The notes beneath the pieces were generated by a model. It did no database searches. It saw only the letters and a program-made list of their open reading frames with translations, and was not told the origin of the DNA. Shown here piece by piece: positions 1 to 64,000 of a DNA stretch of 64,000 nt. The translations under genes were made by a program, and so were the position numbers. Each line of letters opens with the position of its first letter. The first letter of the stretch is position 1. The stretch comes from Waterburya sp. (GTDB taxonomy: Bacteria; Cyanobacteriota; Cyanobacteriia; Cyanobacteriales; Xenococcaceae), in NCBI GenBank assembly GCA_965217895.1, contig CBDCJV010000002.1, positions 512,001-576,000 on the forward strand, in the 5' to 3' direction.

Positions 1-467
1 GCCTCTAAAAATATGATGTCTCCTGGGACTAGTTCTTCTGCATCAAGTTGTTGAGTTATCCCGTCGCGGATTACTTTTACCTGAGTCGAAGAAAGACGTT
101 TGAGTGCAGCGAGGGCTTTTTCAGCACGACTTTCTTGAACATAGCCTAAAATGCCGTTGAGAATAACAATGATAAAGATAGCGATGGAATCTTTGGGAAA
201 ATTGCCGTGACGCAGATCTAAAATTGCCGAAATTATGGCGATCGCCATCAGCATAATCAGCATAATATTAGTAAACTGATCCCATAAGATGCTCAGTTTA
301 CTTCGTCCAGCCGTCTGTTTTAGTTCATTCTTGCCAAAATACTTTTGTCTTCGATCAACTTCATCACTAGATAAGCCGCTGCTAGCATCAGCTTTAAGTA
401 ATTCAATGGCTTTTTCAAGGTTTATAGTATGCCAATCGTTAATGCTCGTCAGCGTTGATAAAGACAT
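1..467 (-). CDS. Cation-transporting P-type ATPase (P2-type), N-terminal part; runs off the window edge
   Basis: Manual translation from ATG 467: MSLSTLTSINDWHTI...GLSSDEV..R...FGKNEL...ILWDQF...ILNGILGYVQESRAEKALAALK...ELVPGDII. Confidence 0.9.
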   Translation of the reverse strand, partial: MSLSTLTSINDWHTINLEKAIELLKADASSGLSSDEVDRRQKYFGKNELKQTAGRSKLSILWDQFTNIMLIMLMAIAIISAILDLRHGNFPKDSIAIFIIVILNGILGYVQESRAEKALAALKRLSSTQVKVIRDGITQQLDAEELVPGDIIFLE

Positions 468-611
468 TTAATTTTGTCCTTAAATACTGTTGGTAGTCTT
501 CCAAATTTACCTTATAAAGCCATAAATTGTGAACCATCGCTGTAAAACATTAGAAAACTCGTCGTTTAATATGCGATCGCTGTCCTCTATATCACAACTA
601 ACCATCCACCA

Positions 612-761
612 TTAGTAATACTTTTTAGGATCTTCGCCAGGATCGCCACTGAAAGGTTGAACTCCAGTTTTGGGATAGTCATCATCTGTAGCTTTGAACA
701 GTCGGAATACTCCATCAAATAAATATTGGACTGTGTTTTGCACCCATGTAAAAATCTTCAT
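612..761 (-). CDS. atpT: 49-aa small protein, AtpTheta (Norf1)-like ATP synthase inhibitor candidate
   Basis: Not in the ORF track. MKIFTWVQNTVQYLFDGVFRLFKATDDDYPKTGVQPFSGDPGEDPKKYY; GAGGT RBS; amphipathic N-terminal helix plus DDDYPxTGVQPFxGD motif. Family assignment is from memory. Confidence 0.6.
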   Translation of the reverse strand: MKIFTWVQNTVQYLFDGVFRLFKATDDDYPKTGVQPFSGDPGEDPKKYY

Positions 762-790
762 ATCTTTTACCTCATCGATTAAATTAACGA

Positions 791-1411
791 TTATTCAGCT
801 AAAAACTCTCGGTCAAATATTTGTCTTGTGAGGGGATACTCTAAAACCAATCCTTCTCCCCCAAGGGGATAATCTTCATTCAAAGGTATTCCCTCAACTG
901 ATAAAAACACTCGTGCTTGGGGATCTATACTCGTTGCCGTATAAAGCACTTGAGCCACTCGATAAATCATTGAACTACTGCCACCTCCCTGAGTAAATTC
1001 ATGGGATAAATCGACGTGTACCCCATCTTCGCTAGTCTGTAGATCTAGTAAACGTGTACCCTGGGGAATTGTACTGGTTGGATTGAAGACGAACGCTTGG
1101 GCAAATAGCTTATCTAAAGCCTCAGTCAAAGCAGCTTGAGGCGAAGTTGCAGAAGTGTAAATAGCTTTGGGTGTCAAATGGATACGCCGATCAACTATCT
1201 CTAGCTGATAGATCTGAGGAGTAAACTTAGCTGGCTGTACCTCTTCAACTGAAGAAGATCCCGATCTTGTAACTGTGGGTAATATTACTTTGCTCAATGA
1301 CCAAATACCAGCGATTTCAGCAACTCCTATTAACAACAGTGAAAGTCCTATCAGTATCGGGGCTACATTAGATGACTTGTTGTGTAATTTGTCATGTATT
1401 TTCATTGTCAC
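791..1411 (-). CDS. GerMN-domain membrane-anchored protein
   Basis: N-terminal TM segment; STIPQGTRLL...VHVDLS.EF..GGGS.SM..RVAQV.YTATS motif. Confidence 0.8.
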   Translation of the reverse strand: MTMKIHDKLHNKSSNVAPILIGLSLLLIGVAEIAGIWSLSKVILPTVTRSGSSSVEEVQPAKFTPQIYQLEIVDRRIHLTPKAIYTSATSPQAALTEALDKLFAQAFVFNPTSTIPQGTRLLDLQTSEDGVHVDLSHEFTQGGGSSSMIYRVAQVLYTATSIDPQARVFLSVEGIPLNEDYPLGGEGLVLEYPLTRQIFDREFLAE

Positions 1412-1441
1412 CTCACCTGTGTTTACTTCCTCTTGAAACTT

Positions 1442-2795
1442 TTAGATATTGGCTGTACTGGCTATATTCACCTTGGGCATGGTTATAGTTAATACTCCCT
1501 GAACCAATTCGGCTCTGATATGATTGACCTGAATTTTACTGGTAGGGAAACGTTGCACTCAAGCTGTCCATAGTGAAGCTGAGAAGGAATCAATTCTTTT
1601 TCGGTTGATGACTTATGGTGGTCATATATAGCAGTCGAAGTATAGGTTAGGACGTTAGCTTAACAGCATAATCAACTCTCTCTCGAAAATTTTCGATACT
1701 ACCTTTTGATTTTCTTACTCTGTTTTTAATGGGAAACCAACAATGCTCTATTTTATTTAAATCAGGAGAATAAGGAGGTAAATATTGAAGTTCACAACCC
1801 GCTGATTCAACTAATTCTCTAATTCTTTCTCCTGCTTGGTGCGCGTACATGCGGAAGCGCGCCTTTGTCTTGCGCCTATCGGCAGCGCGGGGTCGCATCC
1901 GCTTTATGAAATGTGGCATTATCTAAAATGAGTCTTTGCCCTGGATTTAATCCAGGAAGTAATTTTTCTTCGAGCCATTTTTCAAATACTAAGCGATTAC
2001 AAGACCCCTCAAAAGTTAATGGTGCGAGCAATTTTCCTTGGCACAATCCACTCATAATACTCACTCTAAGACTTCTTCTTCCTGATTTTAAATCATAGAA
2101 TCTTTTTCCTTTCTCATTCCATCCATAGCCATAATCCTCTCGATTGTCCATTCCTGATTCGTCAATATAGACTCTATTTTCTGGCTTGGTTTTGCTAATC
2201 TTTAACTTGAATTTTTGTCTTTTTTCTTCATCTCTCTCTTGATAACCGTAAGTTTTTTTTTCTGGTATATCCAATTTTTTGAAGTGCTTTGCCAATGGTG
2301 CGATCGCTAATTTTTTCTGACCATTTATCCGCCATTTCTTGCTAAGTAAGACTACCGTAAGTCTTAGCGAACTTCCTAAAATTTTCTAAATCAGTAATTT
2401 TAGAATTATATCCCTGTTGATATCCAACTTCTGCTCGATAATCTCCTGTTTTCGCTCTTTTTTTCAGCCAAAGGTCAATTGTATTCCGACTGATTTTAAA
2501 AATGCGACTTACCTGAGTTTTAGCCATTCCATCATTGATCGCATTAATTACTTTTGTTCTTAAATTGTAGCTATAAGAAGCTGGCATCTTAGTCTTTCAT
2601 TTATCGTACTTCATATTTATTATGTCCTAATCCTTGCTTCGATTGCTATACTCCAGAAATTGCCACTGATTCTGATTCGGCACTGATATTCAAATCCTTA
2701 ATCTCAACTCCAGGAAGTTCTGCTTTGAGAATTAAGTCTCGGTCAGTTTCATTGAACTCGATCGCTGGACACCAAGTTTTGTCTTCTTGTCTCAT
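1442..2795 (-). pseudogene. Hsp20/alpha-crystallin small heat-shock protein, split by IS630 and frameshifted
   Basis: MRQEDKTWCPAIEFNETDRDLILKAELPGVEIKDLNIS...ISGV | IS | YDHHK...LHYGQLECNVSLPVK, then a 1-nt loss near 1535 before (I)QVNHIRAELVQGVLTITMPK; GGAGA RBS. Confidence 0.85.
1629..2648 (-). mobile_element. IS630-family insertion sequence, inactive transposase
   Basis: Imperfect TIRs TAGCAGTCGAAGTATAGGTTAGGAC / GTCCTAATCCTTGCTTCGATTGCTA; TA duplication at 1627-1628 and 2649-2650; YIDESG, ILDNATFHK and LPPYSPDLNKIE motifs; premature stop at 2342 and a 70-bp insertion at 1833-1902. Confidence 0.92.
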
Positions 2796-2871
2796 TTTCT
2801 TCTCCCGATCTGCAAGTTAGTAACGTGTAAAAACTATCTTTTTTTCTATGATTTAAGAATAGCGATCGATG

Positions 2872-2889
2872 TTGAAGAACTTGTGAGGA
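2872..2889 (-). promoter_or_regulatory. Island direct-repeat box upstream of hsp20
   Basis: TCCTCACAAGTTCTTCAA-N10-TATTCT. Confidence 0.8.
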
Positions 2890-3433: not shown

Positions 3434-3451
3434 TTGAGAAACTTGTGAAGC
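3434..3451 (-). promoter_or_regulatory. Island direct-repeat box upstream of 2917..3387
   Basis: GCTTCACAAGTTTCTCAA-N10-TAATCT. Confidence 0.7.
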
Positions 3452-3455: not shown

Positions 3456-4682
3456 CTAATTGTGATTTTTAATAGCGTAAGCCTGTTGTGCAATTGCCCA
3501 ATCTTCTTGAGTATGAATTACCAACACTTTTACAGTTGAGTCAACAGCAGCAACATTCATATCGGTAGGATTAGCATTATTTTTATCTAAATTATTTTTA
3601 TCTAAATTCAACTTCAAACCTAGATAGCTCAATCCCGCACAAGTTTGTTCGCGAATTATAGCTGAATTTTCACCCACTCCCGCAGTAAAGACTAAAACAT
3701 CTAAACCATTTATACTGGCTACCATTGCGCCTATAGAACTTTTTAAGCGATGTAGATAAATATCAAGGGCTAATGATGCTCTTTTATTTCCCTCGGCGAT
3801 CGCTTCTGAAATAGCTCTTATGTCCCCAGATATTCCAGAAACTCCTTTTAAACCTGAATTTTGATTTAATATCTGACTTACCTCCTCGAAAACTAAGCTA
3901 TATTCCTGCATCATGTAGAGCGGAATCTGAGGATCGATTGAACCACAGCGAGTACCCATCATTAAGCCTTCCAGGGGAGAAAAGCCCATCGTGGTATCGA
4001 TACAGATCCCGTTATCGATCACAGCCAGAGAACAGCCATTACCTAAATGACAGGTAACAATTTTAAGAGATTCTAATGGTTTCTGAAGAATTTGAGCAGC
4101 GCGGTTAGCGCAATACTCATGGGAAATACCGTGAAAGCCATAACGCTGAATGCCCTTCTCGTAATATTCATAAGGCAAAGGATAAACTTTTGCTGCTTCA
4201 GGGAGCGTTGTATGAAACGCTGTATCAAATACAGCTACTTGAGGTACAGGTACTTCGGGCAGTATTTCTTTGATCGCATTGATGCCTTCGAGATGAGCAG
4301 GATTATGATTGGGAGCAAGGGGAATTAGATCGGCGATCGCCTTTTTAACCTCATCATCAATTGGAGTAGCCTGACTATATTTTGCCCCGCCATGCACTAC
4401 TCGATGACCTACTAAATTGATTTCCTCAAGACTCTCTAAAACTTTAGTTTCTCCCTGAACTAGAGTACTCAATAGAACGGTTAAAGCAGTATCACGCTCT
4501 TGAACTTCAATTTTCTGTTTAATACCGTTACTTTTAACAGTTAAAATACCCCCCGACTGCGCTACCGTCCAATCGAGGTGAGCCGACCATAATGGTTTTG
4601 AAGCAGTGGGGAAAGGTTCTTCAAGAATATAAAGACAGCTTTTTTGGCTGCTAGAGCCTGCGTTTAGAACTAATATGTTCAT
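3456..4682 (-). CDS. ackA: Acetate kinase
   Basis: LVLNAGSSSQK, GHRVVHGG, FDTAFH, YGFHGISH, HLGNGCS, FTAGVGENS. Confidence 0.97.
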   Translation of the reverse strand: MNILVLNAGSSSQKSCLYILEEPFPTASKPLWSAHLDWTVAQSGGILTVKSNGIKQKIEVQERDTALTVLLSTLVQGETKVLESLEEINLVGHRVVHGGAKYSQATPIDDEVKKAIADLIPLAPNHNPAHLEGINAIKEILPEVPVPQVAVFDTAFHTTLPEAAKVYPLPYEYYEKGIQRYGFHGISHEYCANRAAQILQKPLESLKIVTCHLGNGCSLAVIDNGICIDTTMGFSPLEGLMMGTRCGSIDPQIPLYMMQEYSLVFEEVSQILNQNSGLKGVSGISGDIRAISEAIAEGNKRASLALDIYLHRLKSSIGAMVASINGLDVLVFTAGVGENSAIIREQTCAGLSYLGLKLNLDKNNLDKNNANPTDMNVAAVDSTVKVLVIHTQEDWAIAQQAYAIKNHN

Positions 4683-4743
4683 TCTCAACCTTTTTCGTAA
4701 GGATTAGTAGTGTTGTCATTAGATAATCCAGAACCTACTCAAA

Positions 4744-5448
4744 TCACAAGGGAATTTTATTGATAACTTTCACTGCTGAATCAAATTCGTAGATAATGGG
4801 GACTCCCGTGGCTAGCTCCAATTTTGGCACTTCTTCAACAGATAATTTGTCTAAATCCATAATTATGGAGCGTAATGAATTACCATGAGCCACGACTAAA
4901 ACCGTTTCGCCATTTTTCAGGTGAGTAAAAATGCGATCTCTAAAGAAAGGTAAAACTCTAGCTCTAGTATCTTCTAGGCTTTCACCCCCTGGAGGTCGAG
5001 TGTTATAGGAGCGTCGCCAGAGATTGACCTGCTCTGCTCCATATTTTGCTGCTGTTTCAGTTTTGTTTAAACCCTGCAATTGCCCATAATACCGTTCATC
5101 TAAGTTTAATGTGGTAAAAATCGGCAATTCTTGAGTGCGATCGCCTTCATATTTGTCCCAATCATGCCAATTGGGATCATTAGTAAAATGTTTAATAATA
5201 GGGGTTTTGCCTCCACAAATTTCACTGCACTCAGTCAAGCAAATAATGGCTGTCTCTATTGCTCTGATTAATAAGCTGGTGAAACAAACGTCTATTCGCT
5301 CGTCGCTTTTACTCAATTTACGAGAGGCGGTAATCGCTTCAGCACGCCCTTTCTTGCTCAGAGGAACATCGACCCAACCTGTAAACCTGTTTTGGGCGTT
5401 CCAAAGGCTTTGTCCATGACGAATTAAAATTAGTCTAGCCACAATCAA
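4744..5448 (-). CDS. gpmA: 2,3-BPG-dependent phosphoglycerate mutase
   Basis: LIRHGQS.WN..NRFTGWVDV, LDERYYG.LQG, VAHGNSLR. Confidence 0.95.
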   Translation of the reverse strand: MIVARLILIRHGQSLWNAQNRFTGWVDVPLSKKGRAEAITASRKLSKSDERIDVCFTSLLIRAIETAIICLTECSEICGGKTPIIKHFTNDPNWHDWDKYEGDRTQELPIFTTLNLDERYYGQLQGLNKTETAAKYGAEQVNLWRRSYNTRPPGGESLEDTRARVLPFFRDRIFTHLKNGETVLVVAHGNSLRSIIMDLDKLSVEEVPKLELATGVPIIYEFDSAVKVINKIPL

Positions 5449-5449: not shown

Positions 5450-7852
5450 CTATTGAGACCATTTCCAGTTAGTAATCTCTGGCTTATCCATCCCCTGTTC
5501 GTGAGCGTAAGCCAGATTGTCGATAATCTCGTTTTTCATCCGTTCTCTGACATAAACGGCTCTCGAACCAAGTTTTTCGACTCGATCTATAACATCGATG
5601 ATTAAGTTAAAGCGATCTATTTGATTTAGCATCGCTAGCTCTAAAGGCGTATTGATATTACCCTGCTCTTTATAGCCTCTGACGTGAATCCGCTCTTGAT
5701 TAGTGCGACGATAGGCTAGTTTATGAATCAACCAGGGGTAGCCGTGAAAGTTAAAGATTACTGGTTTGTCAGGAGTGAACAGAATATCAAATTCTTTGTT
5801 GGATAAGCCGTGAGGATGTTCACGTTCCGACTGCAAGCGATATAGATCGACCACGTTAATAAACCTAACTTTCAGTTCGGGAAACTCTTCGCGCAATATC
5901 GCTGTGGCTGCCAAAGATTCCATTGTCGGAATATCGCCACAGCAAGCCATAATTACGTCAGGTTCATCTGCTGCTTTTCCACAGTCATCGTTACTCGCCC
6001 AATCCCAAATACCGATACCCTTGGTACAGTGCTTTACCGCTTCATCCATTGTCAGATATTGCAGGTGATTTTGCTTGTCGGCAATGATCACGTTGACGTA
6101 ATCCTTACTCTTCAAACAGTGGTCGGCAACGGATAATAAGCAGTTAGCGTCGGGCGGGAAATAAATGCGGGTAACATCCGCACTTTTGTTTGTTACTACG
6201 TCAATAAAGCCTGGATCTTGATGGGAAAAGCCATTATGATCCTGTCGCCAGACTAAAGAAGATAGCAGCAGATTGAGAGAAGATACGGGAACGCGCCAGG
6301 GAACGTGCTTTTTACAGATTTCCAACCATTTGGCGTGCTGGTTAAACATGGAGTCGATGACGTGAATAAATGCTTCATAACTATGGATAAATCCGTGTCT
6401 GCCAGTAAGCAAATACGTCTCCAGCCAACCTTCAAGGGTATGTTCGCTCAACATCTCCATTACTCTGCCATTGGGTGATAACTGACTGCCATCTTCATCC
6501 TCTGGAAGATAGTCTGCCATCCACGCTTTCTTAGTAACTTCGTAGATATCCTGTAGGCGATTAGAAGCAGTTTCGTCGGGTCCAAAGACGCGAAAGTTGG
6601 TCATGTTGTGCTTCATCACATCTCGTAAAAACTTACCCAATACTCTGGTGTTTTCGACTTCTACCGTTCCTGGCGTTTCCATTTCTATGGCATAATCGTT
6701 AAAGTCAGGCAGCTTGAGATCTTTTCTCAAAAGTCCGCCATTAGCTACAGGATTGGCACTCATGCGTTTAATACCGACTGGAGCGAGTTCTTTGAGTTCG
6801 GGAATCAAAGTACCATGCTCGTCAAACAATTCTTCTGGTTTGTAGTCCTTCATCCACTGTTCGAGAAGCTTTACGTGTTCTGGGTTAGAGTGCATTCCTC
6901 CCATTGGTACTTGATGCGATCTCCAGAATCCTTCTACCTTGTGTCCGTCTACTTCTGCTGGTCCCGTCCAGCCTTTGGGAGTTCGTAAAATAATCATGGG
7001 CCAACGAGGTCGAAAGGCTTTATTTTGGCTACGGGCTTCCTGTTGATATTCTCTAATCTTGACAATGCACTCTTCCATGACTCCCGCCATTTTTTGGTGC
7101 ATGGTTTCGGGGTCTGAACCTTTTACTACATAGGGAGTATAGCCATAGCCTTCAAACAATTTAGTCAACTCTTCCTCACTAATACGAGCCAGAATTGTCG
7201 GGTTGGCAATTTTGTAGCCATTTAGGTTGAGGATCGGCAATACTGCCCCATCGCGGATGGGATTGAGAAATTTGTTGGAGTGCCAAGCCGTCGCCAATGG
7301 TCCTGTTTCTGCTTCCCCATCTCCTACTACACAAGCAACTATTAAATCGGGATTGTCGTAGGCTGCACCAAAGGCATGGGAAACGCTGTAGCCTAGTTCT
7401 CCTCCTTCATGAATTGAACCAGGGGTTTCAGGGGTACAGTGACTGCCGATATAACCAGGAAATGAGAATTGCTTAAAAAACTTTTGCATTCCCGATTCGT
7501 CCTGGCTTTTGTCGGGATAAACTTCGGAATAAGTTCCTTCAAGATATACGGGTCCTAGTACTCCAGGTGCGCCATGTCCTGGTCCTGCAATAAAGATAGA
7601 GTTGAGGTCGTACTTCTTAATCAGGCGATTGAGGTGAATATAGGTAAAGCTAAGTGCGGGAGAAGAACCCCAATGTCCTAACAGTCGTTGTTTGATATGT
7701 TTTGCCTGAAGGGGTTCTTTGAGTAAGGGATTATCTCGCAGATAAATCATGCCCACTGCTAGGTAGTTACAGGCACGCCAATAGGCATCTATTTTGCGAG
7801 CTTCTTCTGTGTTTAGGGCAGTCGTTGAATCTGTAGAGGGAGTAGATACCAT
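5450..7852 (-). CDS. xfp: Xylulose-5-P/fructose-6-P phosphoketolase
   Basis: [42 protein letters not shown]. Confidence 0.97.
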
Positions 7853-7907: not shown

Positions 7908-8903
7908 CTAAAAATTAAGCTGACTGAAAACTTCTTGGAGAACTTGAGCCGAATGACAAAGCTGTTTCTCTTCTCTAGGGCTTAAATCTAAATTAACAGT
8001 TTTGAGTATACCTTTTTCGCTGACTACTCTTGGTAAACCCAGACACACATTGTCAATACCGTACATTCCATCTACTAAACCGCTAACTGTAAGAACTCTT
8101 TCCTGACTGCGTAGAATCGCTTTAACGATATCGGTTACAACTAAACCGATCGCATAAGAAGTATATCCTTTGCGCTGAATAACGTCATAGGCTGCATTTT
8201 TGACGCGATCGAATATAGCAGTTAATTCTTGGCGATCGCTTTCTTTAAAATTCTCCCAATCTTGGGACAATAATTTTCGACCTGCGACATTCGCTGTACT
8301 CCAGACAGGAACTTCACTATCACCATGTTCGCCGATGATATAAGCATGAACACTACGAGCATCAATATTTAATTTACTTGCTAGCAAAGTGCGAAATCTA
8401 GAGGTATCTAATACCGTTCCCGAACCGATCACTCTAGAACTGGGAAAGTCAGAAATTTTAAGTGCTACGTAGGTCATAATGTCTACGGGATTGGTCACAA
8501 TCAATAGAATAGCGTCTGGACAATATTTGGCTACATCAGCCAAAATATTTTGATAAATAGCAATATTGCGACCTAGTAAATCGAGGCGAGTCTCGCCTGG
8601 TTTTTGCGCTGCGCCAGCCGTAATAATTACGATGTCTGCGTCTTTACCTGCATCAGCTACAGTTCCAGCTACAAGCTCAGTAGGATCGATCAAAGACATA
8701 CCATGAAGCATATCCATGACTTCTCCCTCAACTTTTTGAGTTTCAAGATCTTGCAAGACTAGCTCATCAAAGCAGTTTTGGATCAGTAAGGAATAGGCGC
8801 AGGCTAATCCAACCTGTCCTAAACCAATAATGACTCCTTTACGGGGACGAAGAATATTTGTTGATTCGGCTTCAGAATTGAGAGTAAAAATTTGGTCGAA
8901 CAT
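7908..8903 (-). CDS. ldh: L-lactate dehydrogenase
   Basis: [40 protein letters not shown]. Confidence 0.95.
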
Positions 8904-8933
8904 AAAGCTTGCTTGAGTATTAATCACTAACTA

Positions 8934-48973: not shown

Positions 48974-48979
48974 GACTTA

Positions 48980-53591: not shown

Positions 53592-53626
53592 GTCTTCATA
53601 GATTGATTAGTGCGTGACATCATTTC

Positions 53627-54272: not shown

Positions 54273-54290
54273 TTGAAGAACTTATGAGGA
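54273..54290 (-). promoter_or_regulatory. Island direct-repeat box upstream of the usp-ABC-marC-mscS unit
   Basis: TCCTCATAAGTTCTTCAA-N10-TACATA; a degenerate opposite copy TCCTCActccatATTCAA at 54305-54322 faces sucrose synthase. Confidence 0.85.
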
Positions 54291-54371: not shown

Positions 54372-56789
54372 ATGTCCTATTTAATTGAAGCAATTTTAAA
54401 TTCCGCAGAAAAAAAAGATCTCAGAGAATTTATCAGTCAGTTGACAGCATCCGAGCAAAAATATTTGCTACGCAACGATATTCTCAATTCCTTTAATTTG
54501 TTTTGTCAAACAAAGACTAATCCAGGGCAATACTACGATCGTTCTAATCTGGGCAAGTTAATTTACTATACCCAGGAGATTATCCTCGAACAAGAAAGTA
54601 TTTGTCTAATTATCCGTCCTAAGATTGCCCGACAAGAAGCTTATCGGCTATTTGAAGATTTAAACTATGAATCGATGACGATTCAACAACTGCTAGACGC
54701 ACGCGATCGCTTTGTCGATCGTTTTCATCCCGAAGAAGGAGACGTATTGGAAATTGATTTTCGATCCTTCTACGATTATTCCCCCATGATTCGTGACTCC
54801 AAAAACATTGGCAGAGGCGTACAGTTTCTCAATCGCTATCTTTCTAGTAAGCTTTTTCAAGATCCTAATCAGTGGTTGGAAGCTCTCTATAGCTTTTTAA
54901 GTCTCCATAGCTATAACGGCACTACCTTGCTGATTAACGGCAGAATTAAAGACCGCCAACAGTTAAGCGATCGCGTTAAACAAGCGTTAAATCTTGTCAG
55001 TGGACTGCCAAAAGATAAATCTTATGAAGAATTTCGCTTTGAATTACAAAACTTGGGTTTTGAACCAGGTTGGGGCAACACCGCCAGTAGAGTTAGAGAA
55101 ACCCTAGATATTCTAGATGAATTGATTGACTCCCCTGACGATGGGGTTCTCGAAGCCTTCTTGTCTCGCATTCCGATGATTTTTCGTATTGTCTTAGTCT
55201 CGGTTCATGGTTGGTTTGCCCAAGAAGGAGTTTTAGGTCGTCCTGACACTGGCGGACAGGTGGTTTACGTCCTCGATCAAGCTAGAAGTCTAGAACAACA
55301 ACTACATGAAGATATTTCTCTCGCTGGTTTGGATAGTCTCAAAATAGAACCCAAAGTAATTATCCTGACTCGGCTAATTCCCAATAGTGATGGAACTCGT
55401 TGTAACGAACGATTAGAAAAAGTTCACGGTACTAATAACGCCTGGATTTTGCGCGTACCTTTAAGAGAATTCAACCCCAATACTCAAAACTGGATTTCTC
55501 GCTTTGAGATTTATCCCTATCTCGAAACCTATGCAATTGATGCCGAGAAAGAACTTTGTGCCGAATTTCAAGGTATTCCCGATCTGATTATCGGTAACTA
55601 TTCCGATGGTAATTTAGTTTCCTTTCTCCTTGCCCGTCGCTTAAAAGTTACTCAGTTTACTATTGCCCACGCTTTAGAAAAATCCAAGTATTTATTTAGT
55701 AACCTGTATTGGCAAGATTCAGAATCTACTTATCATTTTTCCTTACAATTTACTGCCGATTTAATTGCCATGAATGCAGCCAACTGTATTATCAGCAGTA
55801 CCTATCAAGAAATCGCTGGAAGAGCAGATAGTGTAGGACAATATGAGTCCTATGATAATTTCACCATGCCCGACCTTTATCATGTGGTTAATGGTATCGA
55901 ACTATTCTCCCCGAAGTTTAATATCGTTCCCCCTGGAGTTAATGAAAACATTTACTTCCCTTATACCCGTTCTGAAGATCGCGTTGCTTCTAAAACCGAA
56001 AAATTAACAGAATTACTCTTTACTAGCGAAGATCCTAGCTTTATTTTCGGCAAGTTAGAAGACCCTAGCAAACGTCCTCTCTTTTCGATGGCGAGATTAG
56101 ATCGGATTAAAAACCTGACTGGTTTGGCAGAATGTTTTGGGCGATCGCCCGAATTACAAGAACGGTGTAATCTTATTTTAGTCGCGGGTAAAATCCACGG
56201 TGCAGAAACCGAAGATAATGAAGAAAGAGCAGAAATTGAGAAGATGTATCGCATCATCGAACAGTACGATCTTCATGGCAAGATGCGTTGGTTGGGTCTG
56301 CGTTTACCAAAAGCCGAATCTGGAGAAATCTATCGAGTTATTGGCGATCGCCAAGGCGTATTTATCCAACCTGCTTTATTTGAAGCCTTTGGTTTGACAA
56401 TTTTAGAAGCGATGATTTCTGGTTTACCTACCTTCGGGACGCAATTTGGTGGTCCATTAGAAATTATTCAAGATGGAGTCAACGGCTTTTATATTAACCC
56501 AACTAATTTAGAAGAAACTGCTCCAAAAATTTTAGAATTTGTTCGAGGGTGCGATCGCCACCCCGATTATTGGCATGAGATTTCCGATCGAGGTATAAAA
56601 AGAGTTTATAGTACCTACACTTGGAAAATTCATACAACGAAATTGCTATCTCTGGCTCGTATTTATGGTTTTTGGAACTACACCTCTAAAGAACAACGAG
56701 AAGATCTGTTGCGTTATATCGAAGCTTTGTTTTATTTAATTTACAAGCCCAGAGCGAAACAATTGTTAGAACAACATAGGCAACGTTGA
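54372..56789 (+). CDS. sus: Sucrose synthase
   Basis: GVQFLNRYLS, LGRPDTGGQVVYVLDQ, HALEK.KY, MARLDRIKN, EAFGLT. Confidence 0.96.
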   Translation: MSYLIEAILNSAEKKDLREFISQLTASEQKYLLRNDILNSFNLFCQTKTNPGQYYDRSNLGKLIYYTQEIILEQESICLIIRPKIARQEAYRLFEDLNYESMTIQQLLDARDRFVDRFHPEEGDVLEIDFRSFYDYSPMIRDSKNIGRGVQFLNRYLSSKLFQDPNQWLEALYSFLSLHSYNGTTLLINGRIKDRQQLSDRVKQALNLVSGLPKDKSYEEFRFELQNLGFEPGWGNTASRVRETLDILDELIDSPDDGVLEAFLSRIPMIFRIVLVSVHGWFAQEGVLGRPDTGGQVVYVLDQARSLEQQLHEDISLAGLDSLKIEPKVIILTRLIPNSDGTRCNERLEKVHGTNNAWILRVPLREFNPNTQNWISRFEIYPYLETYAIDAEKELCAEFQGIPDLIIGNYSDGNLVSFLLARRLKVTQFTIAHALEKSKYLFSNLYWQDSESTYHFSLQFTADLIAMNAANCIISSTYQEIAGRADSVGQYESYDNFTMPDLYHVVNGIELFSPKFNIVPPGVNENIYFPYTRSEDRVASKTEKLTELLFTSEDPSFIFGKLEDPSKRPLFSMARLDRIKNLTGLAECFGRSPELQERCNLILVAGKIHGAETEDNEERAEIEKMYRIIEQYDLHGKMRWLGLRLPKAESGEIYRVIGDRQGVFIQPALFEAFGLTILEAMISGLPTFGTQFGGPLEIIQDGVNGFYINPTNLEETAPKILEFVRGCDRHPDYWHEISDRGIKRVYSTYTWKIHTTKLLSLARIYGFWNYTSKEQREDLLRYIEALFYLIYKPRAKQLLEQHRQR

Positions 56790-56998: not shown

Positions 56999-58858
56999 AT
57001 GAGACTTTTATTAGTAGACGATGACGAGGTGTTAGTAGATGCCCTTGCTAACCATCTCATCAAGCAGCGATATGCGGTAGACATTGCCTCAGATGGTGAG
57101 GAAGCGTGGGAATATATTGCACTTTTTAACTACGACCTAATCGTCTTAGATGTCATGCTACCAAAACTTGACGGTATTAGTTTGTGTGAAAAACTTCGCA
57201 ATCATAGTCATGGGATGCCCGTGCTGATGTTAACGGCTTGCGATCGCAGTACTGATATTGTTAAAGGGTTAAATGCTGGGGCTGATGATTACTTAGTTAA
57301 GCCATTTAATTTCGACGAGCTTACTGCCAGGATCCACGCTTTGCTGCGCCGAGAAGGTCAAAGTCTACCATCTATCTTGAAACGAGGCAGTTTAAGTCTT
57401 AATCCCAATAACTTAGAAGTAATTTATAACGAGAAACTGCTTAATTTGACAGCAAAGGAATATGCTTTGGTAGAGCTTTTTCTACGCAGTCCAAATCGGG
57501 TTTTTACTACTGAGGGAATTATTGAAAGCCTGTGGACGTTTGAAGACCCACCGACTGAGGGCGCAGTCAGAACTCACATCAAAACTCTACGACAAAAGCT
57601 AAAAACTGCTGGAGCAGCTAAAGATTTTATTGAGACGATTTACGGAGTGGGTTATCGCCTCAAGCCACTGCCTAATGAAGAACAAACTGAGATATCTGCA
57701 TCTAATTCCGAAGTACAATCGGACACGACTGCCGATCTTGCTCATCTTTGGGAACAATATAAAGATGCCATGTCCGATCGCCTAATTATCTTAGAGGATA
57801 CGGCGATTGCTTTACAAACAGATAATTTCAATTCTGCATTGAAACAGGAATCTAGGTTAGCAGCTCACAAATTAGCAGGTTCTCTAGGTAGTTTGGGGTT
57901 TGACGATGGCTCGAAGCTAGCGAGAGAATTAGAAATTTTACTTAATCTGGAAACTTTCCCCCAGCTAGACCAAATTGAGCCTTTCGAGCGGTTAGTCAAC
58001 ACTTTGAGAGCGAGACTAGAAGATCACCAGCCTGACTCTAGTTCGACTTTAGAAAGTTATCCCTTGTTATTAATTGTGGATGATGACCGCGATTTTACTC
58101 AAGAGTTAGAGATAGAAGCAGCAGCTAATAATTTCCGAACTGCGATCGCTAGTACTGCATTGCAAGCACAAGAGATAATTAGGCGCGATCGCCCTGCTAT
58201 CGTTTTACTCAAAATATTTCAGATCAAAACTGACGCTACCCCAAATAACTGTCCGATGGATAGTTTAGATTTACTAGCAGAACTTCAGCAGCAAATGCCT
58301 TCACTACCCATTGTGGTAATTCTCTCAGAGACAGCTCTGTTTAACACCAGTGAAGATTTTACCAACCGTCTGAAAATTATCCGCCGTGCAGAACACACTT
58401 TGTTAGTACAGCCTGTAACCCCACATCAAGCAATGGATGCTGTAACTCAAACTCTGCAAAGATCTGGGGCGGGAATAAAAATAACAGTTGTCGATGACGA
58501 TCCGTCAATTTTAAAGTCGATGCAAACAAGTCTCGAAGCCTGGGGATTTGAGATTACTACTCTTAATGACCCCCATCAGTTTTGGCAGGTTATTCAAACT
58601 ACTTCTCCCAATTTGTTGGTGTTAGATATAGAGATGCCCGACGTTAGTGGAATTGAGCTGTGTCATGCTTTACGAAGTGACCCAGATTGGAGTCATTTAC
58701 CCGTGCTGTTTCTCACTGCTTATCAAGACTTAGCAACTCAGGAAAGGGCTTTTGCCATAGGTGCAGATGATTATGTTAGTAAACCGATTAGGGGACAAGA
58801 ATTAGTTACCCGCATCCTCAATCGCCTGTCACGAATCCGCGCAATTCAAAGTAGGTAG
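56999..58858 (+). CDS. Multi-domain OmpR-family response regulator (REC-wHTH-HPt-REC-REC, RcaC-like)
   Basis: LLVDDD..LDVMLP..KPF; wHTH VRTHIK.LR.KL...IETIYGVGYR; HPt AHKLAGSLG; pseudo-REC (LLKIF); final REC LDIEMP..KP. Confidence 0.92.
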   Translation: MRLLLVDDDEVLVDALANHLIKQRYAVDIASDGEEAWEYIALFNYDLIVLDVMLPKLDGISLCEKLRNHSHGMPVLMLTACDRSTDIVKGLNAGADDYLVKPFNFDELTARIHALLRREGQSLPSILKRGSLSLNPNNLEVIYNEKLLNLTAKEYALVELFLRSPNRVFTTEGIIESLWTFEDPPTEGAVRTHIKTLRQKLKTAGAAKDFIETIYGVGYRLKPLPNEEQTEISASNSEVQSDTTADLAHLWEQYKDAMSDRLIILEDTAIALQTDNFNSALKQESRLAAHKLAGSLGSLGFDDGSKLARELEILLNLETFPQLDQIEPFERLVNTLRARLEDHQPDSSSTLESYPLLLIVDDDRDFTQELEIEAAANNFRTAIASTALQAQEIIRRDRPAIVLLKIFQIKTDATPNNCPMDSLDLLAELQQQMPSLPIVVILSETALFNTSEDFTNRLKIIRRAEHTLLVQPVTPHQAMDAVTQTLQRSGAGIKITVVDDDPSILKSMQTSLEAWGFEITTLNDPHQFWQVIQTTSPNLLVLDIEMPDVSGIELCHALRSDPDWSHLPVLFLTAYQDLATQERAFAIGADDYVSKPIRGQELVTRILNRLSRIRAIQSR

Positions 58859-58938: not shown

Positions 58939-60555
58939 CTAAAAATTAAAAGTGGTACGCAATACTCCTACATATTGGGTATCATTATCACTGTTATTTT
59001 CTGGATTAAAAATTGCCCAAACACCAGGAGTCACTGAGATATTATCGTTAACTTTTAAGCGATAAAATGCTTCTACGTGATAGGCATTCTCATCTTCTTC
59101 TAAGACATCACTAGATGAGACGTGGGGTGGTATGCCAAAAACAATTCCTGGCAGGTTGCCTTCTCCTCCCACATCGGGAAAAGACACCCCAATTGCTCCG
59201 TACCAAGCATTAGCACTATCGCCACTATTAACGGCGAAGGAATTTGTGCCACCAAGACCATCAGAGAGGGAACTTGTATCAGAGTTTTCCGCGTTTGCCC
59301 AAATATAGCCTCCCCAACCATGAACCTGAAAGTTATCTGAGAATTTATAAAATCCTTGCAGATCGATAATGTCGTTAGAAGTAGCTATATTATCGCCGAA
59401 AGGGGAGTTTACCAGAAGGCTACCCGTTCCGCCTATTAAGCTCACCCTATCTTCAGGGGCATAACCGTGAGAATAGCCAACGCCAAGAGCGCCTTCTTCC
59501 CCGATATATGTCAAGTGCGCCAAGGCATTGTAACCACCATTAAATAGACCATTTCCTGACAGGGAATTATTAGGATTGTCTGCTAAATAACCAACCGTTA
59601 GGGTTAGCTTGTCTGTGAAATCCCAATTGATACCCGCACCACCGCCACCGCGACGAAAGAAAGGACTATACGATCCAAATAAAGAGGGGACTCCGTTTCC
59701 ATCATCGGCAATTAAGGCAGGAGTAATGGTAGTAGTGATATCGGTATAGCCCATGCCTACTGGTCCAACTGCTACTGAAATAGAGTCATTAACTGGAGTG
59801 AAATAACGAACCTGAGCAATAAAGGCATCGTTATTGGTGTCACTGTCAAAATTTAAGCGTGTCATTCCCGTACCAGTAGCCACGGCAATTTGACTATTGC
59901 CATCCTCATCGAAAAAATTACCAAATTCTAAACGAACTCTTAGTAAATCTTCTCCTGTAAAGCTGCTTTCAAAGTTAAGACGACCACGATTAGCAAAGAA
60001 GACTTCAGATTCGTCATCATCACCACCCACCGTATTACCAAAGCTATCGCTAACAGCAGTGATAATCTCAGCAACAAGTTTAGTCGTAGTAGAAAACTGA
60101 TTGTCTTCTAATGTTGCCGTGCGTGTCTCTAATTCATCAACTCGACCGCGCAGGGTAGCTAGTTCTGCCCCAAAGTCTGCCTCCAGTCTTCGCATCATTC
60201 CTAAATCTTCTGGGTTGACCCGATTGTTACTATCGGCAACCAATTGACTAATTCGATCTAAACAAGCATTTAAACTAGCGGCAAACTCGTAACGAGTCAA
60301 AGCGCGATTACCGCGATAGGTAGAATCGGGATAACCTGAGATGCAGCCATAGCGTTCGACTAGCGATCGCAAAGCTCCATATGCCCAGTCAGTCGGTCGC
60401 ACATCGGATAACTGGTCAACTGAATTAACTTGTCCTTGTAGAGTTGGATCTGTATTTACTGGGACAGAGGGATCAAAATCGTTCAAAGGTACTGCTGAAG
60501 CAGCAGTCGATACTAGTAATGAAATAGGAAAACTGTATAAAAAGCTTTTTAACAT
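58939..60555 (-). CDS. SLH-domain OprB-type carbohydrate porin
   Basis: SV.QLSDVRPTDWAY.AL.SLVERYGC..GYPD, FSTTTKL, C-terminal LRTTFNF. Confidence 0.9.
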   Translation of the reverse strand: MLKSFLYSFPISLLVSTAASAVPLNDFDPSVPVNTDPTLQGQVNSVDQLSDVRPTDWAYGALRSLVERYGCISGYPDSTYRGNRALTRYEFAASLNACLDRISQLVADSNNRVNPEDLGMMRRLEADFGAELATLRGRVDELETRTATLEDNQFSTTTKLVAEIITAVSDSFGNTVGGDDDESEVFFANRGRLNFESSFTGEDLLRVRLEFGNFFDEDGNSQIAVATGTGMTRLNFDSDTNNDAFIAQVRYFTPVNDSISVAVGPVGMGYTDITTTITPALIADDGNGVPSLFGSYSPFFRRGGGGAGINWDFTDKLTLTVGYLADNPNNSLSGNGLFNGGYNALAHLTYIGEEGALGVGYSHGYAPEDRVSLIGGTGSLLVNSPFGDNIATSNDIIDLQGFYKFSDNFQVHGWGGYIWANAENSDTSSLSDGLGGTNSFAVNSGDSANAWYGAIGVSFPDVGGEGNLPGIVFGIPPHVSSSDVLEEDENAYHVEAFYRLKVNDNISVTPGVWAIFNPENNSDNDTQYVGVLRTTFNF

Positions 60556-60637
60556 TTGAGTACTCCAATTGTTGAGTAGCCCAATCAAAATCAACAATTA
60601 TATTAACAATTTTTTTTGGTTGGGCTTTGAGGATTAA

Positions 60638-62038
60638 TTACATGTGTTCTAATTCCATTCCGTTGGTTTCCTTGATGAAAAAGACCACGAAAAATAAGGA
60701 AATAGCTGCTGCAATAGTGTAAAGACCGTATGCCGTACCTAGTCCAAAATATTGCAGTATGGGGGGGAAAGTAGTAGAAACGGCAAAGTTTGCCACCCAC
60801 TGCATCGACGCAGCAAGGGAAAGAGCAGCACCACGAATTTTGTTGTTAAACATTTCGCCTAACAAGACCCAGACCACTGGACCCCAGGAGAATCCAAAGC
60901 AAAATACATAGAGGTTGGCTGCTAAAAGTGCGACAATACCTGCCGTTCCGCTCAAGGTAGGACTACCAGCAGCATTTACGGGTGCATTGCCAAATACTAC
61001 CGCTAACGTTCCCAAGGTTATGGTCATGCCAATCGAGCCGAGAACGAGTAAGGGTTTGCGACCAAATTTATCGACAAAGGCGATCGCAATTAAAGTAGTA
61101 ATAATATTTACCGCTGCTGTAATTACTGTAATGGTTAGAGAATCTTTTTCGGAAAAGCCGACTGCCCGCCATAAAATGCTGCTGTAGTAAAAGATGACGT
61201 TAATACCAACAAATTGCTGGAGTAAGGATAAACCAATACCGATCCAAACGATGGGCAAAAGTCCGCCACTTCTAGCTAGCAGGTCGGAAAACCTAGGCTG
61301 ACGCTCACGTAAAACCGTTTGCCGAATCTCGTTGATTTTCTCTAGGACGTTACCTTTTAAGATTTTAGTCAGAACTTTAGTTGCCTCTTCCTCTCGTCCT
61401 TGAGCAACTAAATATCTTGGTGATTCGGGAATCATTAAGGCTGAAATTCCATAGAGAACTGCTGGCGGAATTTCCGTCCAAAACATCCAACGCCAGGCTG
61501 CTATACCAAATAAAAATGGTAGTTCAGCCGAACCTGCGGATACGGCAATAAAATAGTCGCACAGCAAGGCAATAAAAATACCGATTACAATCGCTAGCTG
61601 CTGGAGTGAACCTAGCCTGCCACGCATATGAGAGGGAGAACATTCAGCGATATAAGCTGGGGCAATGACACTAGCAGCACCAACAGCAATTCCACCTAAT
61701 AATCGCCAAAAGGTAAAATCCCAGATGCCGATCGCCGCCCCAGAGCCAATCGCACTGATAGTAAATAATACCGAAGAAGCGATCATTGCCTTGACGCGAC
61801 CATAGCGATCGGCAATTTTTCCTGCATAGAACGCTCCTAGTGCCGAACCTAACAATGCTAAAGATACTGCCAGACCGACGAATACACTGTTGGCATTAAA
61901 GCCTGAAGCTAAAGCTGCCACCGCACCGTTAATTACTGCGGTATCAAAACCAAACAAGAAACCACCAAGCGCAGCAGCAGCAGCAATTAAAACTACATAT
62001 AGCGTATTGGATTTGCGACGAGAAGTAATGTTTGACAT
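60638..62038 (-). CDS. glcP: MFS glucose/sugar porter
   Basis: GGFLFGFDTAVING, D.YGR, PESPR, QQFVGINVIFYY, PVVWVLLGEMF. Confidence 0.92.
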   Translation of the reverse strand: MSNITSRRKSNTLYVVLIAAAAALGGFLFGFDTAVINGAVAALASGFNANSVFVGLAVSLALLGSALGAFYAGKIADRYGRVKAMIASSVLFTISAIGSGAAIGIWDFTFWRLLGGIAVGAASVIAPAYIAECSPSHMRGRLGSLQQLAIVIGIFIALLCDYFIAVSAGSAELPFLFGIAAWRWMFWTEIPPAVLYGISALMIPESPRYLVAQGREEEATKVLTKILKGNVLEKINEIRQTVLRERQPRFSDLLARSGGLLPIVWIGIGLSLLQQFVGINVIFYYSSILWRAVGFSEKDSLTITVITAAVNIITTLIAIAFVDKFGRKPLLVLGSIGMTITLGTLAVVFGNAPVNAAGSPTLSGTAGIVALLAANLYVFCFGFSWGPVVWVLLGEMFNNKIRGAALSLAASMQWVANFAVSTTFPPILQYFGLGTAYGLYTIAAAISLFFVVFFIKETNGMELEHM

Positions 62039-62084
62039 AAGTTGTATTTCATAAATAATTTATCGTTGGTTCATGTAAATGTCT

Positions 62085-62102
62085 GTAAGGAATTTATGAG
62101 AA
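62085..62102 (-). promoter_or_regulatory. Degenerate island box upstream of glcP
   Basis: TTCTCATAAATTCCTTAC; -10 spacing not conserved. Confidence 0.5.
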
Positions 62103-62206
62103 CTCTAAAAATATTCGAGCCTTATCATTCTTGAGCAGGGTAAAGACACTATGGGTAATAACTGTAAGACAACACGAGAAAGCTTTTTATCAAGCCTGAT
62201 GCTGTT

Positions 62207-62848
62207 CTAAGAGCCTAGTAACTCTAAAAAGAATCCCAGTAATAAAAAAATTAGGCTAGCGATCTTTAACAAGTGATCGAGAGAAGGGTGTTCGAGGAGA
62301 TACGCCAAGGGTTGAAGAAAAATATAATTAATTATCAGCCCTAGCAATGTTGGCGTAACGATCGCTAAAACGGTAAATAAAGGAGCAATAGATACTAACA
62401 AACAGCCAAAGATAAAAATAGCTTCAACTAAAAATAACCAATTAAAAAGATATAATTCTGCTAAAGCTACAACAAAGATAGTTAGTAGAAAACAGATGAA
62501 ATAATTGAGAATATTTAATTGAAAAAATTTACGTCTCGATTGTTTATTAGTGAAATCTCTCGTGTAGTCTTTCATAATTGTTTCACGAAAGATTACGACG
62601 TACCAATCAAAACAGCTTCTGAGAAATTGAACTAGGGTTGTATGTGGGATTGTATTTTCTAAGGATGTACCGAAATAGCGTATTTTCTCAGGTCCAATGA
62701 TATCGGCAATGATAGTAGCAGCTCCCAAAAACTGCATCACCTTGCCAATTCGTTCCCACCAGAAGATACTTATGCCCCAGAGCATTGCATCGCTAGATAG
62801 GTTATTGGATAACCAAAGTTTTCCTGCTTCAATAAAACTAATTTCCAT
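62207..62848 (-). CDS. Hypothetical membrane protein
   Basis: 213-aa ORF with several hydrophobic segments. Confidence 0.6.
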   Translation of the reverse strand: MEISFIEAGKLWLSNNLSSDAMLWGISIFWWERIGKVMQFLGAATIIADIIGPEKIRYFGTSLENTIPHTTLVQFLRSCFDWYVVIFRETIMKDYTRDFTNKQSRRKFFQLNILNYFICFLLTIFVVALAELYLFNWLFLVEAIFIFGCLLVSIAPLFTVLAIVTPTLLGLIINYIFLQPLAYLLEHPSLDHLLKIASLIFLLLGFFLELLGS

Positions 62849-62995
62849 TTACATCACATCTGGCATCTCTCTTATCGAGTAGAAGCTTGAAATACGTGGG
62901 TTAGGATTTAGGAGTTCAGAATTATAAATTACAGCGAATTTCAGTTGAATATAACTTATTACCTATTACCTATTACCTCAACAAATTAATGTAGC

Positions 62996-64000
62996 CTACC
63001 CATCCTCTAATATTGGCGATTTTTGGAACTTCTGTAGGAATTGTAATAAAGCTACGTTTGTTCCCAGTCGGTCGATTTCGCCTCGGTATTTGGTCACAGC
63101 CTCGACAAAACGCGGGGACTGAGAGAGATCGCCAAACACTTCCTCTATATCGAGCAAGAAATGGGGATCTGAGCCACCCAATCGAGCGCACTTTGTAAGT
63201 ATGTTTGCCATCGGATCTTCAATAGCTAGAGGCAGCCCCTGTTCGTCGATACCTGTTAGGTAACGCAACCATACAGCAATAGTAAAGCTCAAGTAATCTA
63301 TCGAACTATTTTGTTCGAGCTTATCTCTTAGGCTGCCAAAGATAAACTTAGGCATTTTGTCAGAGCCATTAAGGCAGAGGCGGGATAGACGATCGCTGAC
63401 TTTAGGATTGGAAAATCGTGCGATTAAGGTCTGTTTATATTCCTTAATGTCCACACCAGGTAGGGGTGCGAGGGTTGGTGTTACTTCATCCATCAAGCCG
63501 ACTATAGCCCGTCGGATCGGTTCATAGTTCATTGCCTCAGAGGTATAGGTGTAGCCTAGCAGCGAACCTAAATAGCCCAGTAACGAATGACTAGCGTTGA
63601 GTAGTCGCAGCTTCATCAGTTCGTAGGGATGAACGTCGTCGGTCATTTGCACGCCGACAGATTCCCAATCGGGTCGCCCCGCACAGAATTTATCTTCAAT
63701 CACCCACTGTATAAAGAGTTCTGCTACCACAGGCCAGTCATCTTTAATCCCAAATTTATCCTCTACCATTTGGATATCGGCGGGGGTAGTGCTAGGAGTA
63801 ATGCGATCGACCATACTGTTAGGAAAAGCAACGTGCTGGGCGATCCACTGTCCCAGATCTGGGTTTTGTAAATTGGCAAAGGCAGTTAGCATTTTGCTCA
63901 AGACATTCCCGTTCCCCTGGATATTATCGCAAGATAAGACGGTGAAAGGCGGTAAACCATTTTGTCGCCTTCGTTCCAGGGCAGCGGTGAGAAAGCCATA
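62996..64000 (-). CDS. Mannitol dehydrogenase family protein, C-terminal part; start lies outside the window
   Basis: TVLSCDN, FPNSMVDRITP, QWVIED.F..GRP, YE.MKLRLLNASHS. Confidence 0.92.
   Translation of the reverse strand, partial: YGFLTAALERRRQNGLPPFTVLSCDNIQGNGNVLSKMLTAFANLQNPDLGQWIAQHVAFPNSMVDRITPSTTPADIQMVEDKFGIKDDWPVVAELFIQWVIEDKFCAGRPDWESVGVQMTDDVHPYELMKLRLLNASHSLLGYLGSLLGYTYTSEAMNYEPIRRAIVGLMDEVTPTLAPLPGVDIKEYKQTLIARFSNPKVSDRLSRLCLNGSDKMPKFIFGSLRDKLEQNSSIDYLSFTIAVWLRYLTGIDEQGLPLAIEDPMANILTKCARLGGSDPHFLLDIEEVFGDLSQSPRFVEAVTKYRGEIDRLGTNVALLQFLQKFQKSPILEDG

Follow-up and report, generated by a model that had tools for sequence, protein, structure and literature searches.

We analyzed a 64,000-nucleotide stretch of contig C2 from a Waterburya sp. 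(C2:512001-576000, hereafter the window), which makes up about 1.2% of a 5.29-Mb cyanobacterial genome and whose nearest named protein relatives come from Stanieria, Pleurocapsa, and Xenococcaceae. The window holds a cluster of fermentation and stress genes, a promoter box that recurs in front of many of them, and a gene for an OmpR-type regulator that is a candidate to act through this box. Genes were called by Pfam and NCBIfam scans of 55 window open reading frames (ORFs). These scans bore out the gene list of a preliminary description made from the sequence, which had named universal stress proteins (USPs), fermentation enzymes, glycogen and sucrose breakdown, sugar uptake, and ATPases. Five of the genome's seven USP matches lie here, as do its only close matches for ldh, glgX, and sucrose synthase (sus); for xfp, ackA, glgP, and the P3A ATPase, the genome holds another copy outside the window. 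The genes ppsA-usp-usp-usp-SpoIIAA-ldh-xfp-gpmA-ackA form one run with intergenic gaps of -32 to 87 nt. There was no match in this genome to PFOR, HoxF, PFL, or AdhE (tblastn, 1e-6). Three P2A ATPases and one P3A proton ATPase above its cut-off are present. The Hsp20 and P-type ATPase genes of the earlier list were found, but Hsp20 and one P2A ATPase are broken by IS630 and IS4 insertions, respectively. Both genes are whole in a related genome (G417), whole box-led Hsp20 copies occur elsewhere in the same genome, and the IS4 element has inverted ends and a short target duplication. Ribosome hibernation stood as well, with an HPF/RaiA-like protein that scored above the Pfam cut-off, although below that of NCBIfam, and whose top PDB match is HPF (E 2e-26). 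The acid-resistance gene is present as an HdeD-like gene that scores below its family cut-off.

The shared promoter box proposed for the region was clearly recovered. On the transcribed strand it reads C(C/T)TCA(C/T)AAGTTC(C/T)TCAA, a direct repeat with half-sites 11 bp apart. At up to two mismatches, the window has 12 matches against 0.23 expected, a number reached in none of 100 shuffles, and a matrix search added a thirteenth, weaker box. Eleven of the genome's 16 sites at this threshold fall in the window, and when 74 sites from other genera were used to make a matrix, 9 of its 21 genome matches fell there. Twelve of the 13 window boxes have a TA exactly 10 nt on, nine of them with a full TAnnnT, and these 12 point into a gene start 39 to 285 nt away. 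Across 147 distinct sites, a TAnnnT -10-like hexamer stood at exactly 10 nt in 109, and any other spacing from 0 to 29 nt gave at most 9. The site matrix came from 26 own-genome sites (2 of 28 were left out for low score and lack of the TA); sites of other genomes were not selected by the TA criterion. A direct repeat with an 11-bp period that ends 10 nt before a -10 hexamer is the geometry of the Pho box. The box geometry is of the PhoB/OmpR activator type and not that of the DosR palindrome.

Apart from the -10 position, the flanks of the box are unconserved, and the box is therefore not a mobile repeat. The island and its borders contain IS630, IS4, and IS66 elements, an integrase, and a restriction cassette, which would suit a chance gathering of mobile cargo in which the box is a repeat remnant with no regulatory role. 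Such an origin is extremely improbable given flanks conserved only at the -10 position, 12 of 13 window boxes that aim into a gene start, and the selection by the box of one PFOR paralogue over another (see below). We regard the box as almost certainly a working promoter element. Two Acaryochloris transcript starts (RNA-seq-inferred) fall 13 and 18 nt past the predicted positions, which is a loose fit. In relatives of Nostoc PCC 7120, the box ends 99 to 227 nt before the usp start, and for PCC 7120 alr0750 a start at -64 is tabulated (PMC4183373). By the matrix search, glgX, hdeD, sus, mgtC, and the regulator gene have no box in their own orientation. HLR1 and ChlR-type motifs (the latter with a loosened pattern) were not enriched in the window.

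The exact 17-mer box was found in 50 of 401 genomes of the phylum, including 32 of the 46 genomes of family f6 (labeled Nostocaceae in the tree) and none of 21 in family f7; the control gave 7 matches. When the -10 was included, 39 of 80 genomes were positive (100 matches versus 4 for the control; 0 of 15 in family f7), as were 16 of 18 genomes of the same genus. In other genomes, the box leads PFOR-DHODH-like-pfk and pflA-adhE-pflB-acetate CoA ligase operons, hyp, hox, ppsA, and USP genes, and sucrose synthase with GH65 lies one or two genes downstream of box-led starts. At the 30 PFOR loci examined among 57 matches, the box was present in 9 of 9 of the DHODH-linked Nostocaceae paralogue, 0 of 18 of the other paralogue, and 0 of 3 in family f7, although several of these genomes were selected for holding boxes and kin are not independent.

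The arrangement as an island also recurs. In G417, 41.6 kb of the window is kept in the same order on two contigs. On Stanieria plasmid pSTA7437.01, 15 of 16 box matches lie within 165-216 kb, a 51-kb stretch around a 73%-identical regulator that holds USPs, ldh, ppsA, a lactate permease, and Hsp20. On Acaryochloris plasmid pREB4, all 16 box matches lie at 113-213 kb, with one 70 nt before nifJ. The preliminary description had proposed a coregulated, physically clustered fermentation and stress program, and this part of it is supported; the clustering is not peculiar to one genome because G417 and the plasmids carry related islands. No box with a -10 was present at the regulator loci of Gloeothece 7822 and L. 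boryana. USP-bearing plasmid loci of Nostoc, Tolypothrix, and N. flagelliforme turned out to be metal-resistance clusters with at most one box. On the Nostoc and Tolypothrix plasmids, a DUF305-copper ATPase-usp unit next to RppA/RppB starts behind a box-like site that has a -10 (L138:15120, L139:9515), which could be cross-talk with a metal regulon. In genome G297 (L025, L142), a truncated regulator coincides with broken box-led PFOR and pfk genes, which looks like joint decay of the whole regulon.

The candidate activator is a 619-aa multidomain protein (Table 1) in which both the phospho-acceptor Asp and the Trans_reg_C winged helix are present. We predict that its family binds the box, and we consider this probable; the preliminary description had named neither this regulator nor the geometry of the box. 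In this genome, neither full-length copy is more than 3.3 kb from a box, and the 15 single-domain winged helix-turn-helix (wHTH) matches are at least 13 kb from any box. We examined about 6 kb on each side of 60 of 97 regulator matches across genomes, chosen by protein likeness and mostly the best-scoring among those outside the loci examined before; one lower-scoring match was added with its box known beforehand and was counted among the "others." Within this distance, a box occurred at 9 of 19 loci with an AVRTHIK-type helix and at 5 of the remaining 41, whereas the reversed control gave 0 of 60; the Fisher p of 0.007 is overstated because kin are not independent. In Nostocaceae, the regulator, there fused to PAS and kinase domains, stands head-to-head with a box-led usp-hoxE-hoxF-hoxU operon. 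Regulator and box-led usp are also divergent in Stanieria, G411, and G417; at the window locus, sucrose synthase intervenes. Helix type also covaries with the box at position 6, Thr-type with T and Gly-type with C. For the Thr-type, T:C counts were 10:3 in the island, 13:1 in Stanieria, and 3:0 in Chroococcidiopsis, and for the Gly-type, C:T counts were 44:0 at Nostocaceae loci and 13:3 on pREB4. The predicted pairing was checked within the genus, where the Thr-type gene occurs in 2 of 19 genomes and those two hold 21 of 29 T-type boxes. A single-sequence fold of the regulator reached a pLDDT of 34 and was not used.

The box might instead be bound by another conserved, single-domain OmpR/PhoB regulator, with the multidomain protein as a neighbor or a target. 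Many other wHTH regulators exist in the genome, the regulator gene has its own upstream box on pREB4, and six box-positive genomes lack a multidomain match. Against it stand the helix-type-specific adjacency, the conserved divergon, and the covariation with its passed prediction, and family f7 has OmpR regulators and PFOR yet the box in 0 of 15 genomes. We consider this alternative unlikely.

Table 1. Boxes and genes of the window, in window coordinates
Feature	Position	Strand	Basis or remark
P2A ATPase, 924 aa, start only	1..467	-	continues beyond window
49-aa ORF, AtpTheta candidate	612..761	-	second copy at C2 678 kb
Hsp20 gene	1450..2813	-	split by IS630 element (about 1620-2645)
Box leading hsp20-gerMN-atpT-like-P2A ATPase	2872..2888	-	same box-led unit in G097, G271, G417
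Box leading 156-aa gene	3434..3450	-
Acetate kinase (ackA)	3456..4688	-	NCBIfam
Phosphoglycerate mutase (gpmA)	4744..5448	-	NCBIfam
Phosphoketolase (xfp)	5450..7852	-	Pfam, NCBIfam
L-Lactate dehydrogenase	7908..8927	-	TIGR01771 above cut-off
Three tandem USP genes	9328..11155	-	Pfam
PEP synthase (ppsA)	11198..13717	-	Pfam, NCBIfam
Box leading ppsA-usp3-SpoIIAA-ldh-xfp-gpmA-ackA	13805..13821	-	87 nt before start
P3A proton-efflux P-type ATPase	17000..19561	-	TIGR01647, 1057.8 bits (cut-off 615.5)
Box leading P3A proton-efflux ATPase	19661..19677	-
P2A ATPase	19707..23594	-	split by IS4 element (about 21360-22480)
Back-to-back box pair	26771..26821	.	RND adaptor gene one way, DUF5335-PII-like-glgP other way
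Glycogen phosphorylase (glgP)	27658..30210	+	NCBIfam
HdeD-like gene and glgX	31616..34223	+	no box directly upstream
Weaker box leading DUF3122-P2A ATPase	34254..34270	+
P2A cation ATPase	34942..37866	+	Pfam, NCBIfam
Box leading HPF/RaiA-like gene	38428..38444	+
HPF/RaiA-like ribosome hibernation protein	38501..38842	+
Box leading nhaP	39832..39848	+
NhaP-type Na+/H+ antiporter	39977..41521	+	Pfam, NCBIfam
usp-trkA-DUF3124	41747..43626	-	Pfam
Box leading usp-trkA-DUF3124	43666..43682	-
Box leading second 156-aa gene	44348..44364	-
Orphan box	45287..45303	-	no TA at +10, no ORF of at least 45 aa within 500 nt
usp-hlyD-ABC ATPase-two permeases-marC	47178..54172	-	Pfam
Box leading usp-hlyD-ABC exporter	54273..54289	-	conserved regulator/usp divergon box
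Sucrose synthase	54372..56789	+	between box and regulator; not at this place in G417
Candidate activator, 619 aa, Rec (Asp kept)-OmpR wHTH-Hpt (His kept)-pseudo-Rec-Rec	56999..58858	+	Pfam, residues
oprB, glcP, mannitol-type dehydrogenase	58939..64000	-	tail of sugar-uptake run

Sensor kinases accompany the regulators. Sixteen kilobases to the right of the window's regulator lie a CBS-PAS-GAF-PAS-GAF-PAS kinase, a CheY-like gene, and a further receiver (L004:12268-18468); a phage integrase after these genes may mark the right edge of the island. The genome's only two CBS-kinase matches are this close (16 kb) or closer (less than 1 kb) to its two regulators, and the one that adjoins the second regulator has a box. 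CBS kinases were also seen in G097, on pREB4, and in Nostocaceae clusters, although some kinases of these clusters have no CBS domain. Because CBS domain pairs commonly bind adenylates, their presence by the regulators suggests energy-charge sensing. In the CBS kinase to the right of the window, at C2 587 kb, GAF1 keeps the DxCF cysteine and the canonical cysteine position. It matches 22 solved sequences, which are of the cyanobacteriochrome or phytochrome type where named, include RcaE, and include none named DosS; GAF2 had no match among solved structures. A light switch could be read from this, in which the kinase is a two-cysteine cyanobacteriochrome that senses darkness or light color in the manner of RcaE-RcaF-RcaC, and a phytochrome kinase does adjoin a related regulator in L056. 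However, the paralogous kinases of L031 and L012 lack both GAF1 cysteines, and the Nostocaceae CBS kinases have no GAF match. Light can be one input in this strain but not the conserved input, and as the general explanation it is quite improbable. That L056 locus belongs to Microcoleaceae (family f3), which have a distinct box variant, present in L056 close to the related regulator and the phytochrome kinase, and possibly a sister system with light input.

Taken together, the window reads best as the central part of a clustered regulon for fermentation and stress, with an OmpR-type regulator of its own that likely binds the box and activates from it, probably when energy falls. We hold this reading, as a whole, to be reasonably likely. 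The genes, the box, its fixed 10-nt distance to the -10, its orientation, its conservation, and the repeated adjacency of the regulator are direct observations.

Several points weigh against this reading, in addition to the selection of PFOR genomes mentioned above. The link between regulator and box consists of association and covariation, and the covariation may be plain co-inheritance of one module. Two loci break it (L066, with a Gly-type helix and 2 T boxes, and L062, with 1 to 1), and the tree is poorly resolved. No box was nearby at 10 of the 19 AVRTHIK-type loci, and 6 of 39 box-positive genomes (G026, G065, G086, G117, G139, and G191, with one box each) had no regulator match at E 1e-32. 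The input domains of the kinases differ, with no CBS match in the Stanieria and G029 kinases. PTOX, which falls together with hox in a Nostoc CO2 dataset discussed below, has the box in 1 of 13 loci, and the presence of the box in PCC 7120 itself is inferred from relatives. Finally, in A. marina held for 7 days under N2 in the light, 8 box-led first genes appear in the differential table, of which 5 were down (log2 -1.4 to -2.4), 2 were up, and 1 was flat (PMC5295598, Table S3, searched for D014-D023). Counts in that dataset are low, and the plasmid ATPase rises slightly according to the text while the table has atpD down (PMC5295598).

The preliminary description had proposed a program for night-time or mat anoxia; this one dataset speaks against oxygen as the cue. 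We weighed a true oxygen-sensing, DosR-like hypoxia switch. The cargo overlaps with that of DosR and of the lxa locus of Burkholderia cenocepacia, PAS domains could bind heme or flavin, and on the Stanieria plasmid (L131:9574-11415) the box leads a Rieske petC-psbA pair that we take to be a low-oxygen cluster. A. marina hoxE rose under N2 (log2 +1.97; PMC5295598). Most box-led A. marina genes went down under the same gas, however, the window has no DosR- or FNR-like boxes, and the GAF domains of the kinase resemble cyanobacteriochromes (GAF1) or nothing among solved structures (GAF2). A hypoxia switch is, in our view, unlikely.

A cue of carbon excess, high CO2, or acidification, acting through the same box and regulator, deserves more weight, though we still place it as the less probable option beside low energy or darkness. 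In Nostoc PCC 7120, expression of hox, nifJ, and ppsA, which is high under 3% CO2 in the light, drops 74-, 42-, and 107-fold, respectively, within an hour of the shift to air (PMC7699953, Table 2); under calcium shifts, hox and nifJ once more fall into one cluster (PMC4915528). This co-movement supports one regulon and implicates carbon or pH no less than oxygen. Several box-led A. marina genes were down under O2 as well as N2, in flasks whose air had in both cases been replaced (PMC5295598), and the island carries many proton and cation exporters. On the other side, the CO2 step-down also involved pelleting and washing (PMC7699953), the Acaryochloris flasks received injected bicarbonate (PMC5295598), the PCC 7120 box is the one inferred from relatives, and the HPF, USP, and AtpTheta-like cargo fits low energy better. 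Low energy or darkness remains our preferred main cue, at slightly under an even chance.

The preliminary description likened the region to the mycobacterial DosR regulon. In that system, a NarL/LuxR-type regulator acts through a palindromic box and is paired with heme-GAF kinases. Of the genome's 15 GerE/LuxR matches, none is in or near the window, and the DosR palindrome had no window site at 4 mismatches versus 0.44 expected. The likeness therefore holds for the cargo, which includes several USPs, Hsp20, a cation P-ATPase, a hibernation-type factor, pfk, and nitroreductase (summarized in PMC3721108), and fails for the regulator family and the box. The closer clustered analogue is lxa, an approximately 50-kb cluster with six USPs, alpha-crystallin, a cation ATPase, and pfk, a common motif at many intergenic points, and satellite loci elsewhere (PMC3721108). 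Like lxa, the island is a physical grouping on the scale of some 50 genes that share a motif, with several USPs among them. However, lxa has an Anr/Fnr-type palindrome and demonstrated low-oxygen induction (PMC3721108), whereas the island combines true fermentation enzymes with a multidomain OmpR regulator and a direct repeat of PhoB-type geometry. Strict FNR-type sites numbered 0 in the window versus 0.84 expected.

In domain architecture, the nearest systems are RcaE-RcaF-RcaC and RfpABC. RcaC and RfpB are Rec-wHTH-Hpt-Rec regulators, and the L box is a direct repeat with an 11-bp period; a CheY-like partner and a GAF-PAS kinase are shared as well. The system described here differs in its box, in an added pseudo-receiver, in the CBS domains of its kinase, and in the PAS and kinase fusion of the Nostocaceae regulator. 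One window site matched the L box at 2 mismatches versus 0.28 expected, which is no enrichment. There were no phycobiliprotein or pcyA targets among the 55 window proteins or the box-led genes examined, and no far-red photosystem targets in the window.

Clustered fermentation modules are already known. The Cyanothece 51142 linear chromosome reportedly has an energy cluster of glucose and pyruvate genes with lactate dehydrogenase, to which PMC3187577 alludes. The atp/hox block of Acaryochloris pREB4 is itself a member of the regulon, with its 16 boxes, USPs, ppsA, glgP, PFOR, and hox, the regulator AM1_D0171, and a CBS-PAS-GAF kinase. It has been proposed as a fermentation module, with a sigma factor and a PAS kinase named as possible control, and the available portions of those accounts mention neither the box nor a wHTH-Hpt regulator (PMC8949462, PMC9324425). 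Control of hox and nifJ has been assigned to CyAbrB1/2, SigE, LexA, and RpaA on the basis of Synechocystis, Synechococcus, or LexA sites, and no dedicated box-binding activator is listed in the portions available (PMC13421787, PMC3091678); a 2026 redox review names CyAbrB, SigE, and RpaA for these two genes. These factors share target operons with the box, which family f7 lacks (0 of 15 and 0 of 21 genomes).

The island extends beyond both ends of the window, and the box of the first gene of the sugar-uptake run lies just to the right. Two further box clusters are on the same contig. The cluster at C2 617-624 kb (L006:4700-12600) has hypC, DUF7219-CHAD, Hsp20 before a psbA in three pieces, and two short genes that are presumably DUF4327-like, with a USP and pfk nearby. 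The cluster at C2 674-679 kb (L009:4650-9400) repeats the unknown156-hsp20-atpT-like unit and adds an AAA_33 protein and a pentapeptide gene. The 156-aa family (2917-3387, 43830-44300, and L009:8795-9268) has three copies in the genome, each directly box-led, and no Pfam or NCBIfam match. A 136-aa family (L031:11379-11789, L012:9813-10223, L132:5179-5742), likewise with no family match, is box-led and often adjoins the regulator. The 49-aa ORF, a putative AtpTheta by its motif, matched no Pfam or NCBIfam model and only unnamed clusters in the ESM Atlas; of 5 other cyanobacterial genomes, 4 hold short ORFs 43 to 54% identical to it. On the 87-kb contig C1 (5386-18303), the genome carries a distant USP and a second ppsA, neither with a box.

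A restriction-modification cassette at 14400-16760 (a 306-aa unknown ORF, an N4/N6 methylase, and a small HTH, in single copy in the genome) is inserted between two box-led units and is a passenger. The SDR gene (23976-24660) has stops in its 5' part and is whole in G417 (256 aa), a sign of decay; the short RND adaptor gene (25757-26485) is another. IS66 remnants lie at the left edge of the island (L003:15828-17290), and short tandem TATTACC-type repeats, of a kind typical of cyanobacteria, occupy intergenic positions 53500-53590, 56800-56900, and 62960-62980. GC content (41.3% against 39.1%) and HIP1 density gave no clear sign of recent foreign origin, and tRNA and Rfam scans of the window gave no match.

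PhoB substitutes for the -35 element at its promoters. By analogy, the phosphorylated regulator would sit head-to-tail on the two 11-bp-spaced half-sites and replace the -35 element, with phosphate passed from the CBS-PAS-GAF kinase to the CheY-like protein and on to the Hpt domain. In this genome, the output would be release of fuel by glycogen and sucrose breakdown, substrate-level ATP from phosphoketolase and acetate kinase, redox balance by lactate dehydrogenase, export of protons and cations against acidification, and rest of ribosomes and ATP synthase. In lineages with PFOR, Hox, PFL, or AdhE, the box leads these genes instead. The boldest form of this model, in which a CBS kinase reads adenylate charge and acts through a CheY-Hpt relay, one OmpR-type activator, and one box as a master switch for cyanobacterial fermentation, is tentative, and we lean somewhat against it. 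We found no description of the box or the regulator in the open literature, a search whose scope left most subscription journals, regulon databases, and several supplements outside; the chance that a prior description exists is about one in three.

If true, the master switch would drive hydrogenase, PFOR, PFL, phosphoketolase, lactate, proton-export, and hibernation genes and would move on plasmids and islands together with the box variant that matches it. The reviews consulted have so far ascribed hox and fermentation control in filamentous and benthic cyanobacteria to the general factors CyAbrB, LexA, SigE, and RpaA. Our data offer a defined box, a start site predicted to fall about 22 to 24 nt past it, candidates for the activator and the kinase, and a list of targets. 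The model would explain why hox, nifJ, and ppsA move as a block in Nostoc transcriptomes and would give a handle on hydrogen, lactate, and acetate output. Survival cargo of the DosR and lxa type would then be wired to a third, unrelated kind of regulator, which would do for Nostocaceae, Pleurocapsales, and Acaryochloris what FNR, ArcA, or DosR does elsewhere.

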